This document shows, in pieces, positions 19,727 through 25,241 of a stretch of 33,108 nt of DNA. Every line of letters begins with the position of its first letter. Positions within the stretch are counted from its first letter, which is position 1. A program made the position numbers and the translations under genes. Source of the DNA: Pseudobdellovibrionaceae bacterium (lineage in GTDB: Bacteria; Bdellovibrionota; Bdellovibrionia; Bdellovibrionales; UBA1609); assembly GCA_002686065.1 (NCBI GenBank), contig NYZX01000056.1, positions 1-33,108 on the forward strand, written 5' to 3'. Under the pieces are notes generated by a model, which saw only the letters and a program-made list of their open reading frames with translations, was not told where the DNA came from and did not search any database.

Positions 19727-20908
19727 CTAGTCGCAGTTCTGCGGAAGAGCAAAAGGCTTTGACCTGTTTGTCGTTGGCCAGTTTTCGAAGCCTTTTACCG
19801 AAAGAAGAATAAACTGTGACCTTTGGTTCTGGTCAAAATTGTTGTCGCTGACAAGAACCAAGCTTCCTGAACCATCTGGAAAGCGTGGGCCGTAGGCGAT
19901 TCCCTCCAGACTGTCCAATGATTGAAAACCGGGTGTCAGATCAGACAAAATAGTCGAAAGGTCTAAGAACAAAGATTTCTTCAAGAAGTGAACCTTAGAC
20001 TTATCTACATCACTCAACGAAAACTCGCTTTCGATGTTCGTCGCATCCTTTGTGTCTACTTGGAATAGCCTATGAATGTTGACGTAACTTCGAGCTCCAT
20101 AAAACAGATGCGATGTTCGCTCCAGGGCAATAAGCCGATCATCATCAATGGCAAGTAGGTCTGATAGCCCGACGCTTGCAGATCGAACTCGCATTCGATC
20201 TGATTGGACCATTTCTGGATAAACACTGACTTTATAGGCAAACTCTCCGACTAACTTCGGAGGAGTCACCGATATATCATATTTAAGAAGCCTCACATTC
20301 GCCGAGTTTTCGAAGTCCGACCGCTCACCGTCTTGGTAAAGTGGGTACTCGTTCGCTGTGTAGAGGTACTTTCCTGAAGGGGTCACAGTCAGAGATTCAA
20401 AGCCTCCGTTTTGACGGACACCAGAAACATCCGGACGGGACTTAAACTTTTCGGGAACGGAAAACTCACGAACCAGCTTATAGCTAGGGTCAAACTCCAT
20501 GATACTCGGCTCACGGTGTAGTCGTCCCGCATCGGGGTGTAAATTTCCCTCAGAAGAAACAAACAACCGAGCCCCAGCTGTGGCTATTCCTTCGGCATCC
20601 AATAACCACCGAGCAAAAGGTCTGTCTGAAGAATCCTTTAGCAAAATCGTATCTTCCACCTCAACCTGAAGCCCTTCACAGCTCAAGCCAAATCCAAAAC
20701 GATGAATGTGTGGGTGATATCTGTCATCAGAGACGGCAAACAACGACTGATCTGAAGCCATGAACGCCCCTGACAACCCACCAACTCTAAGCCCACTGTG
20801 AAATGTGTCTGTCGACAAATTCGCATCACCCACAACTCGAATATCAGGAACCCCTGCAAACAGCGACCCACACACGACCAACGAAAAAACCAGAGTAAAG
20901 ACTTTCAC
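19727..20908 (-). CDS. secreted esterase-like-activity-of-phytase family protein
   Basis: 393 aa, GTG start, signal peptide MKVFTLVFSLVVCGSLFA. GGLSGAF...AVSDDR, FESLTVTPSGKYLYTANEYPL and LEGIAYGP...LVLVSDNNF recall the phytase-like beta-propeller family. Confidence 0.65.
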   Translation of the reverse strand: MKVFTLVFSLVVCGSLFAGVPDIRVVGDANLSTDTFHSGLRVGGLSGAFMASDQSLFAVSDDRYHPHIHRFGFGLSCEGLQVEVEDTILLKDSSDRPFARWLLDAEGIATAGARLFVSSEGNLHPDAGRLHREPSIMEFDPSYKLVREFSVPEKFKSRPDVSGVRQNGGFESLTVTPSGKYLYTANEYPLYQDGERSDFENSANVRLLKYDISVTPPKLVGEFAYKVSVYPEMVQSDRMRVRSASVGLSDLLAIDDDRLIALERTSHLFYGARSYVNIHRLFQVDTKDATNIESEFSLSDVDKSKVHFLKKSLFLDLSTILSDLTPGFQSLDSLEGIAYGPRFPDGSGSLVLVSDNNFDQNQRSQFILLSVKGFENWPTTNRSKPFALPQNCD

Positions 20909-22092: not shown

Positions 22093-22501
22093 ATTTATTC
22101 TCCTCTTTTTATTGTGTCTCTTTTTTACTGCTCAAGAGCTTACTCGCTAAACGAGCTCCTTACAGAACCCGCCAAAATCCCTCTGCGACTCTTGATTCGC
22201 GGCGAACGTAACGCAGGTCCCGGACGAAATGGAACCGCCAAATTTCTTTTGTAAGGTTTTCTAGAGTCAACAAGGCGGATTTGTAAAATTGGGATAACGA
22301 TACGGACCAAGGAACGCTGTGCCCTGAAGCCGATTCAAGAGACTTGTAGATATCACAGGTCTACACCTTGTCCATTGCGAACAAATATGCGGATGTGGGA
22401 TGATTCCGCCGAGGCAGGAGAAAGCACGTATCGCCCTGCACCTTATTAGAGGTGCGCCCCTGGGAAGGCTAAAGGTGATAGTAAGTGCTGACATGGGAAT
22501 A

Positions 22502-22527
22502 AAGCTTTTGACCGAAGTCAGAAGCTT
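22502..22527 (+). other. 11-bp hairpin in the leader of the 888-aa gene
   Basis: AAGCTTTTGAC (22502-22512) - CGAA - GTCAGAAGCTT (22517-22527), with one G-T pair. Lies 48 nt upstream of GTG 22575. Confidence 0.4.
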
Positions 22528-22574
22528 GGACAGCTGACGGAGAGGCTGCGGTCCATAAATTTAAGGGGCTCCAG

Positions 22575-25241
22575 GTGAGATACTTTTGTTTTGTATCGGC
22601 GATCTCAGAGACTTTCCGTAAACACGCTCGCATACAGGCGAAGGCGATACTATTTGTTCTTTCAACACTGTTTGCCTTAAGCGCTCAAGCAAGGTTAATC
22701 AATCCAGTCATCATTGAACCTTCGGATATTCTTTTCCAAAACTTTCCAGAGTACATCTATCGGAACGGCCAGCTGGTTGAATCCACAAAGCCTTTTAGCT
22801 TCACTTATATAGACCGTCGAGGGGCTAAAAGATCTGTTAAAGGATATTTGCGCCCAGGAACAGAGCTTCTGCTTAAAACCCTTGTTGAGAAGAAAGCCGC
22901 AAATCCCAACTTCAACTTCCACTTCTTGAGCTCATGGCCCCAGGCGAAACTATTTGGGTTTCTTACCGCCTTAAATTCAGATCAGCTACCCATCATCGAC
23001 ACCATCGGTTCCGCATTCGGAAGCGAAGTCATCCAGGCCTATAACAGCTTAAAAGGCAATCAAAACGGCAACCTAAAAGACATTGGCCTTTTCCACCCGA
23101 GTCGTACACATTACCAATCCCTATGGACGTCAATTAAAGGAATCGCAAGTAAAGGCCTATCCCTGAACAAAGACGATCTTATGAAGCGAATGGGAAAAGG
23201 ACCTGACCAGGGCATAAACACAGCGATAATGATCGACAGTCACGCCAAGAACGTCGTCAAACATCAGCGAGATAACGTGGTCGTCCCTGCTCCAAGCCCA
23301 TGGAGAAACGAAAAGTTCAAAGCTAAGTTTGCAAACGCTGTGAAGCGCCCATTAACAACCTTAGGAAACACTCTGCTAAACCACGAAGTTATTGTGGACA
23401 ACACGAACAGGTATCGTCAGCTACGAATTTTAGTAGACCTTTTATCCGATGCCGAAAAAACATCTGTTCCAACCGATGTCAGACGCTGGAGCGAACTGCT
23501 TAGATACGCGAAAACCCTTTCTTTGGATATTTCCCACTATTCGTTTTTGATTGCGGATGTCTTCAAGGAAGACTCTGAAGATACAGAGGTCCTTATCCTG
23601 GGTCGCGATACAGATTTATTCTACGAGGGCGTAAAAACCCTGATCGAACCTCTTGGAATCAAAAGCCATGTGTCCTACATCAATATGAGCCGCCTTATTG
23701 CCAGCAAGCCAGCTAGCGATATCATAAAGGCTCTTGAGTACGTCGGTGTTGACATTGAAGGAGTTCGAGCTGGCCGAAAGAAACTTCGTGTCATCGACTC
23801 GAATCACACAGGAAGTATCGCCCGAAATATCATTCGTGCCGTCGCCGGAGAACAAGGCGAAAGCCCTCAGTGGCGAGATATCGCATCACGAATGTCCGCC
23901 TTTTACTTCAATGTCGTTCGAACCAACCGGATTCCCCTTGAAAGCTGGCCAGACTTCAATACCTATATGGTGAATGGTGGTTTTTTCGAAGACCCTGTTC
24001 ACCAGGAACGCGCCGGTGGGTACGCATTAATGCGGGGAACAACAGCTTACCTCGATACCTATCGACCGAAGCCCATCCAACGTACTGCTGAAATCCGGGA
24101 AGATGGCTCGCTGATTGAGCTTCCGGCGCACCCATCAGAGCTACGAGCTCGTCATGTCTTAGCAGAGCATATTAAAGCCCACTTTTCGTCTCCTGATATT
24201 CGGTCTGTATTAAAAAACCGTCTACAATTCGTTCGTAACCAGCCCGGTCATTATCCCGCTTCCTGGCCCGCAAACGAACCTTACTTCGGAGAAGCACCAC
24301 TAAGCAGAATCATTGACCCAGCTAATCTGGCTGAGGCCATGAACCCCAAGAAAGCCGACAACAAACTTGGGATGTCCTTTTCAAAGCATATCCGTAGTCA
24401 ACGCCGCCATAACATGCTGCCCTTCACCTTCACCCACTTGCACCCGGACTCATTGACTAGGTGGCATATGTACCGCCCCGAATGGGCCGCAAACGAGACA
24501 GAGATTGACCTTGGCCAAAACTTTTTTAAACCTAATTTCGACAGCTCATCTTCGAACTCAATAAACTTAGAACCTTTGAACACGGCCAGTTTACACGAAC
24601 GTCGAATTGCTGCCGTTCAAGCTCTATCGCGTAGTGCCCGCGGCGAACATCTGGGTGGCAAAACACGTGTGTACGGCGAAGAACTTGCCGAGACCACAAG
24701 ACGGTCCAATAACCAAGTTACAGACAACCTGTTGTTGGCTAAAGACCTAAAGTTCGACGACTACAACCAGCTTGGTGAGTTTATCAAACACCAGATAATC
24801 GATATCTACGTCAAAGAAGTCCGACGAGGTTATGAAAGCGGAGACATTTGGAGAGTCCATAACTATCAAAACGATCAACAACTTGTAAGTGGCGAGTTTT
24901 CGGACGCCCAACAGGCTATCGACCTTGAGCAGGACTGGATCTGGTTTTCTGAATGGCTGTTTATGTATCTAAAACATGACTACGACCCGATTCGCCTTGG
25001 CGCAAAAGTCCATTTCTACTTTGCAAACTACCTTCACCCCTCGATTGATGGCGCGGGGAAGTCAGCTCGCGATCTAGTCGACTTCGTTTTTCTTCGAAAA
25101 GGGTATATGCCACCGGACTGGTCAAGAGTTACAAAAGACGAATATTGGCAAAAAACACAATCTTATGATGACCTACTTGAGTTGATTACAGCGCTATCCG
25201 TAAGTGGAGACACCTACCAGTGCAAATCCATTTTTCAGTAG
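22575..25241 (+). CDS. exported 888-aa protein with C-terminal Fic-like domain (degenerate motif HPSIDGAGKSAR)
   Basis: GTG start with AAGGGG RBS. Signal peptide AILFVLSTLFALSAQA|RL. C-terminal HFYFANYLHPSIDGAGKSARDLVDFVFLRKGYMPP (motif at 25035-25070) fits the Fic core HxFx(D/E)GNGRxxR in His, Asp, both Gly and the last Arg. Confidence 0.7.
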   Translation: MRYFCFVSAISETFRKHARIQAKAILFVLSTLFALSAQARLINPVIIEPSDILFQNFPEYIYRNGQLVESTKPFSFTYIDRRGAKRSVKGYLRPGTELLLKTLVEKKAANPNFNFHFLSSWPQAKLFGFLTALNSDQLPIIDTIGSAFGSEVIQAYNSLKGNQNGNLKDIGLFHPSRTHYQSLWTSIKGIASKGLSLNKDDLMKRMGKGPDQGINTAIMIDSHAKNVVKHQRDNVVVPAPSPWRNEKFKAKFANAVKRPLTTLGNTLLNHEVIVDNTNRYRQLRILVDLLSDAEKTSVPTDVRRWSELLRYAKTLSLDISHYSFLIADVFKEDSEDTEVLILGRDTDLFYEGVKTLIEPLGIKSHVSYINMSRLIASKPASDIIKALEYVGVDIEGVRAGRKKLRVIDSNHTGSIARNIIRAVAGEQGESPQWRDIASRMSAFYFNVVRTNRIPLESWPDFNTYMVNGGFFEDPVHQERAGGYALMRGTTAYLDTYRPKPIQRTAEIREDGSLIELPAHPSELRARHVLAEHIKAHFSSPDIRSVLKNRLQFVRNQPGHYPASWPANEPYFGEAPLSRIIDPANLAEAMNPKKADNKLGMSFSKHIRSQRRHNMLPFTFTHLHPDSLTRWHMYRPEWAANETEIDLGQNFFKPNFDSSSSNSINLEPLNTASLHERRIAAVQALSRSARGEHLGGKTRVYGEELAETTRRSNNQVTDNLLLAKDLKFDDYNQLGEFIKHQIIDIYVKEVRRGYESGDIWRVHNYQNDQQLVSGEFSDAQQAIDLEQDWIWFSEWLFMYLKHDYDPIRLGAKVHFYFANYLHPSIDGAGKSARDLVDFVFLRKGYMPPDWSRVTKDEYWQKTQSYDDLLELITALSVSGDTYQCKSIFQ

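Follow-up and report, generated by a model that had tools for sequence, protein, structure and literature searches.

What would a Fic active site do in a protein that leaves the cytoplasm, where ATP is normally absent, and that lacks part of the canonical signature? Fic enzymes make up an important class of toxins and regulators that act by modifying proteins, and known changes in the motif or the pocket accompany new chemistry, such as the kinase activity of Doc and phosphocholination by AnkX. The question is raised by a 33,108-nt stretch of DNA (contig NYZX01000056.1; hereafter the window), in which an 888-residue protein carries a variant Fic signature near its C-terminus. The protein originates from a marine, uncultured bacterium of the Bdellovibrio family, the Pseudobdellovibrionaceae, which in the NCBI taxonomy includes Bdellovibrio, Pseudobdellovibrio and Micavibrio. 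A cluster-mate of another window protein, at 90% identity or more, is labeled Bdellovibrionaceae/Pseudobdellovibrionaceae, and the window aminotransferase finds its best genome match in an uncultured Bdellovibrio, with an identity of only 46%. An earlier reading of the sequence alone (the sequence-only reading) had drawn attention to the motif and had suggested delivery into another cell or a donor other than ATP. Our best explanation, to which we assign a probability of roughly 0.55, is that the protein would be an active, uninhibited Fic transferase with an altered nucleotide-type donor or donor orientation, working outside the cytoplasm of its producer and most plausibly on prey.

The C-terminal Fic domain

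The gene, its signature and the domain are placed as follows.

22575..25241, forward strand: 888-residue open reading frame (ORF) of the Fic protein, with signal peptide, NIF-like domain, uncharacterized α/β domain and Fic domain (ORF list, family alignment, model)
22563..22568, forward strand: Shine-Dalgarno-like AAGGGG, 6 nt 5' of the GTG start (read from the sequence)
24567..25214, forward strand: FICD-like Fic domain, residues ~665-880 (family profile against the PDB, domain model, Foldseek)
25035..25070, forward strand: variant Fic signature HPSIDGAGKSAR, residues 821-832 (sequence, FICD alignment, model, family alignment)

The codons from 25035 to 25070 (CAC CCC TCG ATT GAT GGC GCG GGG AAG TCA GCT CGC) read directly as HPSIDGAGKSAR, as had been claimed, and the flanks quoted with the motif, HFYFANYL ... 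DLVDFVFLRKGYMPP, are present in the translation of the 888-residue protein. The full canonical signature HxFx(D/E)GNGRxxR is absent, with Ser in place of Phe at position 3, Ala in place of Asn at position 7 and Lys in place of Arg at position 9. The looser pattern H...[DE]G.G[KR]..R occurs once in the six-frame translation of the window, against 0.004 occurrences expected. The protein sequence, including Ser823, is identical in 10 further cluster members from independent marine assemblies, and therefore the motif is no sequencing or assembly error. The gene is carried by more than 20 ocean metagenome contigs with unchanged gene order, and it is also found in many marine metagenome runs.

Homology to Fic proteins comes from sequence and from predicted structure. 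In a phmmer search of all PDB sequences, the last 179 residues matched human FICD at E = 2.4e-6, with HPSIDGAGKSAR aligned opposite HPFIDGNGRTSR. A family profile of the C-terminal 249 residues of seven members matched FICD at E = 8.9e-14, Caenorhabditis elegans FIC-1 at 1e-8 and Bacteroides BT_2513 at 5e-8, and Pfam Fic (PF02661) recognizes 5 of 10 family members (best E = 1.1e-5). AlphaFold2 gave a mean predicted local distance difference test score (pLDDT) of 77.7 for the whole protein and of 78.4 for the C-terminal 249 residues, the latter with a predicted template-modeling (TM) score of 0.82. In both models helices at residues 805-820 and 827-841 flank the motif loop, and the motif begins at the end of the first helix and enters the second. 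The best 50 PDB matches of the domain model in Foldseek are all Fic proteins (probability 0.97-1.00, and 1.00 in 47 of the 50), among them FICD, FIC-1, VbhT, IbpA Fic2, EfFic, CdFic, BepC, SoFic and BT_2513; the TM scores against FICD are 0.50-0.58 over 224-259 columns for the 249-residue query. Judged by these profiles and models, a true FICD-like Fic domain makes up the last ~220 residues. The Fic/Doc fold expected by the sequence-only reading is thus borne out, although the domain spans residues ~665-880 and not just the 780-888 that had been proposed.

A stretch ahead of the motif is taken as the probable β-hairpin flap for target docking.

24822..24914, forward strand: probable flap region, residues ~750-780, with conserved [WF]Rx[WH]xY and invariant Arg760 (from model and alignment)

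In the models this putative flap shows isolated β residues near 750, 764 and 779, at a pLDDT of just 53-60. Membership of the candidate defense system PDC-S04, raised by a PADLOC match, was rejected; the match covers only ~45 residues (817-863, E = 1.2e-4) and reflects shared Fic ancestry.

Conservation of the signature in a small family

An exhaustive HMMER search of 1.84 billion representative proteins returned 11 proteins, with nine relatives aligned over most of their length at 23-33% identity, and a later search added a fragment, P0026. The homologues form about 10 clusters in total, some of which are labeled Bdellovibrionota (for example, that of P0006). Word-indexed searches with the full protein and with two family alignments recovered only the query's own cluster, P0026 and one weak match, and a scan of a genome collection with the single protein found no homologue. 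The homologues share an architecture of signal peptide, NIF/FCP1-like HAD phosphatase domain, uncharacterized α/β domain and Fic domain.

Homologues in which the Fic domain is intact carry the signatures HPFTDGVGKTTR, HPFADGVGKVTR, HPFADGVGKTTR, HPFYDAVGKTSR, HPFSDAVGRIGR, HPFYDSVGKVAR and HPFYDGAGRVSR, which give the consensus HPFxD[GAS][VA]G[KR]xxR. His821, Pro822, Asp825, Gly828 and Arg832 are invariant in seven full-length members and also in P0026, at an overall identity of 27-37%; the His, Asp, second Gly and last Arg on which the motif assignment depended are therefore conserved among homologues. In the family alignment, Asn never occurs at position 7, which holds Val or Ala throughout, and position 9 is Lys or Arg. 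Position 3 is Phe in every homologue with an intact domain, and Ser in the window species alone. Thus, two of the three substitutions first remarked upon (Asn to Ala or Val, and the first Arg to Lys or Arg) are traits of the family, whereas Phe to Ser is private to the window species. By its sequence, the homologue P0009, in which the motif is destroyed (VPFQSQYNEVIY), is the picture of what motif decay looks like in this family, and the window protein is unlike it.

The signature probably marks a small, uncharacterized family of secreted enzymes. The literature searched held no description of Fic proteins in Bdellovibrionota, of this signature or of this architecture, nor of any fusion of NIF and Fic domains. 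A 2024 comparative-genomics paper on the phylum leaves Fic unmentioned, and 'Fic domain' and 'Bdellovibrio' were found together only in a paper on Campylobacter type VI secretion system effectors. One homologue is annotated just as "NLI interacting factor-like phosphatase". What is new here is the signature, the architecture, a lone C-terminal cysteine (see below) and the ecological setting, while the fold and the probable class of mechanism are familiar.

The active site and its regulation

In canonical HxFx(D/E)GNGR1xxR2 enzymes, R1, R2 and the central Asn contact ATP directly (PMC5033356). The His is the general base, the Asp or Glu binds Mg, the second Gly forms an anion nest for the diphosphate, and the Asn, besides its role alongside R1 and R2, hydrogen-bonds the backbone of the structural Phe (PMC5033356, PMC8097203). 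Of these, the window family retains the general base, the residue that binds the metal, the anion nest and R2, and its residue at R1 is still basic. The Asn is absent from the whole family, and the Phe that it braces is also gone in the window protein. A 2015 survey of Fic/Doc motifs defined five groups, every one of which has the Asn (PMC4454073); the window signature therefore falls outside the catalogued classes, and a conserved motif that has Lys and lacks the Asn may signify an additional donor specificity.

No (S/T)xxxE(G/N) inhibitory motif was found in the 888-residue protein by regular-expression scan, and none is conserved in the neighboring genes, so that the inhibitory helix which the sequence-only reading had recommended looking for, in cis or nearby, was not encountered. 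Two neighboring candidates were rejected. SLLLEG in the 914-residue downstream protein is a chance occurrence (~0.8 expected per 900 residues), and its Glu aligns with Arg in the homologue; SRVAEG, in an unanchored reverse-strand frame, is likewise at chance level. The Fic domain does contain a conserved element at a suggestive distance from the motif.

24627..24644, forward strand: SRSARG, residues 685-690, with invariant S, R and G, and Arg at the position of the inhibitory Glu (alignment, spacing)

This element, LSR[STN][AI]xG in the family (S685-G690), precedes the catalytic His by 132 residues, against 129 between the inhibitory Glu234 and His363 of FICD (PMC8097203), and the inhibitory segment of EcFicA is SRRLEG (PMC5033356). 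Across the family, the Glu position of SRxxxG is occupied by R, N, N, Q, A, R or Q. By this analogy, SRxxxG reads as a candidate vestigial class II inhibitory helix that has no Glu, and the domain would be constitutively uninhibited. Searched as a sequence profile, the N-terminal half of the Fic domain had no PDB relative. A Glu is present two residues past the inhibitory position in the window protein (S-A-R-G-E-H, residues 689-692, nt 24639-24650), P0006 and P0026; other members have I, R or K there.

FICD/HYPE and the class II AMP-transferases FIC-1, BT_2513 and CdFic are the best match of the window domain in both sequence and fold. They share with it the motif loop between two long helices, the His, Asp, second Gly and last Arg, and a nearly identical HPF(I/V)DG start. 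FICD also has an N-terminal anchor or signal, non-Fic N-terminal domains and a Fic domain at the C-terminus, outside the cytosol (PMC8097203). The window protein differs from FICD in the motif (Asn to Ala or Val, R1 to Lys and, in the window species only, Phe to Ser), in having SRxxxG without an inhibitory Glu where (T/S)V(A/G)IEN would be, in its NIF-like and uncharacterized domains in place of TPR repeats, and in belonging to a bacterial, predatory lineage. EcFicT is similar in another respect, a conserved non-canonical motif that keeps the second Gly of the diphosphate nest, and the Asn is often substituted in EcFicT-like proteins; such degenerate motifs have been read as a possible new biochemical function (PMC5033356). 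However, EcFicT, a small cytoplasmic toxin paired with an SRRLEG antitoxin, has a hydrophobic R1, whereas R1 in the window family is basic (K/R) and the window protein is large, exported and has no antitoxin.

Export signal, phosphatase-like domain and a possible modular scaffold

The remainder of the protein bears on where the Fic domain would act and on whether it is the only catalytic center.

22575..22691, forward strand: Sec-type signal peptide, residues 1-39, which could instead be an uncleaved N-terminal anchor (inspection, hydropathy)
22695..23459, forward strand: NIF/FCP1-like HAD phosphatase domain, residues ~41-295 (Pfam in homologues, family alignment)
22716..22730, forward strand: degenerate HAD motif I, EPSDI, residues 48-52; DLDET, DxExT or similar in homologues (alignment)
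23460..24299, forward strand: uncharacterized α/β middle domain, residues ~296-575, with GRDxD ... SR ... hhVDxGxxGS (model, alignment)
24300..24566, forward strand: poorly conserved linker, residues ~576-664 (pLDDT below 50 at 605-662; variable, gapped alignment)
25221..25223, forward strand: Cys883, in most members the sole cysteine of the mature protein (alignment)

By inspection, the N-terminus opens with a basic n-region, followed by a hydrophobic core of 13 residues (AILFVLSTLFALS; mean Kyte-Doolittle hydropathy of the h-region 2.37) and an AQA|R cleavage site, around which (residues 33-39) the AlphaFold2 pLDDT is low. An equivalent segment stands directly ahead of the first conserved domain in 8 of 10 homologues, in agreement with the earlier view of the protein as exported.

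Pfam NIF (PF03031) matches 6 of 10 members (best E = 1.3e-7), with P0009, P0005 and P0006 scoring 31.9, 24.3 and 23.8 bits, all above the cut-off of 21.8. The window protein itself has no NIF match in Pfam, and its NIF homology follows only from the family alignment. The family's N-terminal domains resemble the HAD phosphatases NIF, FCP1 and SCP in passing the Pfam threshold and in their DLDET, (K/R)PG..FL, KD and DD motifs. In contrast, the window protein has EPSDI and DS (residues 221-222) where P0005, P0006, P0007 and P0009 have DLDET and DD, and so lacks both the catalytic motif I, DxDx(T/V), and the acidic motif IV of these phosphatases. From these motifs, its phosphatase domain is probably catalytically dead. 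P0009 presents the reverse case, with DLDET kept and the Fic motif destroyed, and therefore the two catalytic centers decay independently.

The middle domain is modeled mostly at a pLDDT of 70-95 and has no sequence relative in Pfam or the PDB. Foldseek with the full model could not identify it, as it gave just low-TM matches to the Bcs3 capsule multienzyme and to SIS-type folds. In a distant relative, P0011 (L014:268-2730), the middle domain is present twice in tandem (hhalign probability 97%, E = 6.5e-11), and where the family has Fic, a protein-kinase-like domain follows (Pfam Pkinase, E = 4.9e-6); P0011 has no N-terminal signal peptide. This arrangement suggests a modular scaffold with interchangeable protein-modifying domains that use nucleotides, and the swap points to a scaffold that is itself uncharacterized.

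The lone cysteine is kept in every homologue that has the region (P0002-P0007, P0009 and P0026), 5-13 residues from the C-terminus and often in the context C-x-x-I-F-x-stop. It is part of no CaaX box and is followed by no transmembrane segment. Its role could be as a signal for sorting, tethering or disulfide formation.

Proposed function and alternatives

In the transferase that we favor, His821 would deprotonate the Ser, Thr or Tyr hydroxyl of a target protein. The di- or triphosphate of a donor of nucleotide type would be bound by Asp825 (via a metal), the anion nest at Gly828, Lys829 and Arg832, and a phosphate-linked group would be moved from this donor onto the protein hydroxyl. Because the central Asn is lost, the donor or its orientation would be altered. 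The site of action would be in or on another cell, the prey, or where the donor leaks from it, rather than the ATP-free periplasm. Action in or on another cell seems most likely because the protein leaves the cytoplasm of a bacterium of a predatory lineage, and export signals are also present in the co-located partner proteins. The proposal of delivery into another cell gains plausibility from the organism and several homologues being labeled Bdellovibrionaceae or Bdellovibrionota. The kinase-like domain in the place of Fic in P0011 fits a C-terminal module that modifies proteins with nucleotides.

Effectors such as VopS, IbpA and the Beps have canonical or near-canonical motifs and enter eukaryotic cells by type III, type IV or two-partner secretion. 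The window protein would resemble VopS, IbpA Fic2 and the Beps in having its Fic domain outside the producer and no inhibitory Glu in cis, and IbpA Fic2 and Bep structures are among its best 50 fold matches. It is unlike them in that a Sec signal peptide is the sole export feature seen, and in that its presumed target is bacterial prey. VopS and IbpA are likewise without an auto-inhibitory helix (PMC8097203). As an exported protein of the Bdellovibrio family, the window protein would be a specific candidate for a weapon of bacterial predation that works by post-translational modification.

Several observations weigh against this proposal. Metatranscriptome contigs of the same samples contain none of the Fic gene's words. 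The gene has no linked secretion system or other means of delivery, and the gene neighborhoods of the homologues are not conserved, with unrelated neighbors at loci other than that of P0002. That the uncultured lineage is predatory is taken from taxonomy labels only. In the alignment to the Fic hidden Markov model that the sequence-only reading had called for, the window protein alone stays below threshold (13 bits against 24); at full length it has no significant Pfam match, and its C-terminal fragment reaches E = 0.19. Finally, as read from the sequences, the central ATP-contacting Asn is missing from the whole family and the structural Phe is Ser here, and degenerate-motif relatives urge caution. 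Fic variants of this kind, EcFicT-like proteins included, have been suggested not to be competent for adenylylation (PMC5033356), and BepC, also with a degenerate motif, acts without catalysis, its effect being triggered even by a quadruple active-site mutant (PMC8097203). The window family is very small and has no cultured member, and beyond its fold and conservation all that we say of it is inference.

The same losses are the case for a pseudoenzyme, the most serious rival and clearly less probable in our view, in which the Fic domain would be a binding or scaffolding module as in BepC, with the NIF phosphatase domain as the source of whatever catalysis the family performs. The persistence of the P0009 protein after loss of its Fic motif is consistent with such a role. 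However, the invariance of His, Asp, second Gly and last Arg, together with a basic position 9, at 27-37% identity would scarcely be expected unless the site binds phosphate or is catalytic, and the decay of the window NIF motif to EPSDI leaves the Fic domain as the sole plausible catalytic site.

A bolder form of the transferase proposal, unlikely when taken as a whole, would see in the family a new class of predator-to-prey or other inter-cellular effector. It would have a non-AMPylating, Asn-less site HPFxDG[VA]GKxxR that takes another donor or donor orientation and has no inhibitory Glu, the C-terminal Cys as a so far undescribed signal for sorting, tethering or activation, and the NIF and middle domains as a reusable chassis, for delivery or targeting, of a Fic or kinase warhead.

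We consider it decidedly improbable that the protein is no effector and instead serves the producer's own envelope as a housekeeping or regulatory enzyme, modifying, for example, periplasmic or flagellar-sheath proteins from a donor other than ATP. The window operon does lie inside a flagellar and glycosylation cluster, and FICD, the closest solved relative, is N-terminally anchored in a non-cytosolic compartment and acts on a resident protein target (PMC8097203). However, the flagellar context is conserved at no homologue locus examined, and no extracytoplasmic donor is known for bacterial Fic enzymes.

A Doc-like kinase, which would bind ATP inverted and phosphorylate its target, is very improbable. 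Doc and AnkX share the Fido fold with the window domain, and their deviations in motif or pocket accompany chemistry other than AMPylation; the Lys within the window motif and the kinase-like domain of P0011 could be taken to point the same way. However, in the Doc motif groups, Hxxx[D/E]GNKRxx[!R], the Lys occupies position 8, the Asn and Arg9 are retained and there is no Arg12 (PMC4454073). The window motif has its Lys at position 9, preceded at position 8 by a Gly that is invariant in the family, keeps an equally invariant Arg12 and has no Asn, and so the analogy to Doc drawn by the sequence-only reading is positionally off. The nearest relatives by sequence and fold are of the FICD type, and no Doc structure is among the best 50 fold matches. 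In AnkX, R1 binds the α-phosphate of CDP-choline (PMC5033356), and the window substitutions fall at other positions than those in either Doc or AnkX.

A chance resemblance of the motif in a non-Fic protein, which the missing Pfam match of the full-length protein might suggest, has a negligible probability and is refuted by the FICD profile match, the all-Fic fold matches and the pattern expectation of 0.004.

Gene neighborhood

Two further ORFs follow the Fic gene in what appears to be one operon.

25220..27964, forward strand: downstream ORF of 914 residues, possible partner; 22-nt overlap with the Fic ORF, signal-peptide-like N-terminus
27942..28727, forward strand: third overlapping ORF, 261 residues, with a signal-peptide-like N-terminus and no known domain (ORF list)

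The 914-residue protein has no match in Pfam or the PDB. Its homologue (903 residues, E = 2e-15, with a clear signal peptide) adjoins the Fic homologue P0002 in divergent orientation in another metagenome (L002/L003), and this 914/903-residue pair is the only homologous one among the candidate partner genes. A cluster member in NCBI nr has 863 residues; a start 51 codons later, as this implies, would drop the signal peptide. On the TARA scaffold L011, the gene is split into parts of 210 and 644 residues.

At L002, a gene of 258 residues with a clear signal peptide has the same relative position as the 261-residue ORF, but the pair was rejected as a conserved partner, as its similarity is not significant (E = 0.067). 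The ~495-residue and Gln_deamidase_2 neighbors of homologues were also rejected, having no significant similarity to window genes. Gln_deamidase_2 (PF18626) genes occur near P0006 (L012:4648-5598) and P0011 (L014:8081-8857), with no counterpart in the window, and hint at effector-rich neighborhoods.

Upstream of the Fic operon is an unusually long intergenic region of 480 nt (22093-22574). It contains no Rfam family, tRNA or tmRNA (the Rfam and tRNA scans had no match anywhere in the window), its folding (22200-22574) is no better than that of shuffled sequences (z = -0.41), and promoter and terminator scans gave background levels.

The flagellar and glycosylation cluster around the operon is a placement found at none of the homologue loci examined. 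It occupies 1-21600 and 28800-33100 of the window, with the late flagellar genes for FliD, FliS, a FliT-like protein, flagellin and a FlaG-like protein. Interleaved with these are probable glycosylation genes, encoding two large GT9-like proteins, a TPR protein, a cytidylyltransferase-like protein and an aminotransferase. The window also has genes for secreted phosphatase-type proteins, one phytase-like (19727-20908) and one PhoD-like (29199-30371), and a phytase-like gene is also found directly 3' of the Fic homologue P0003 (L004).

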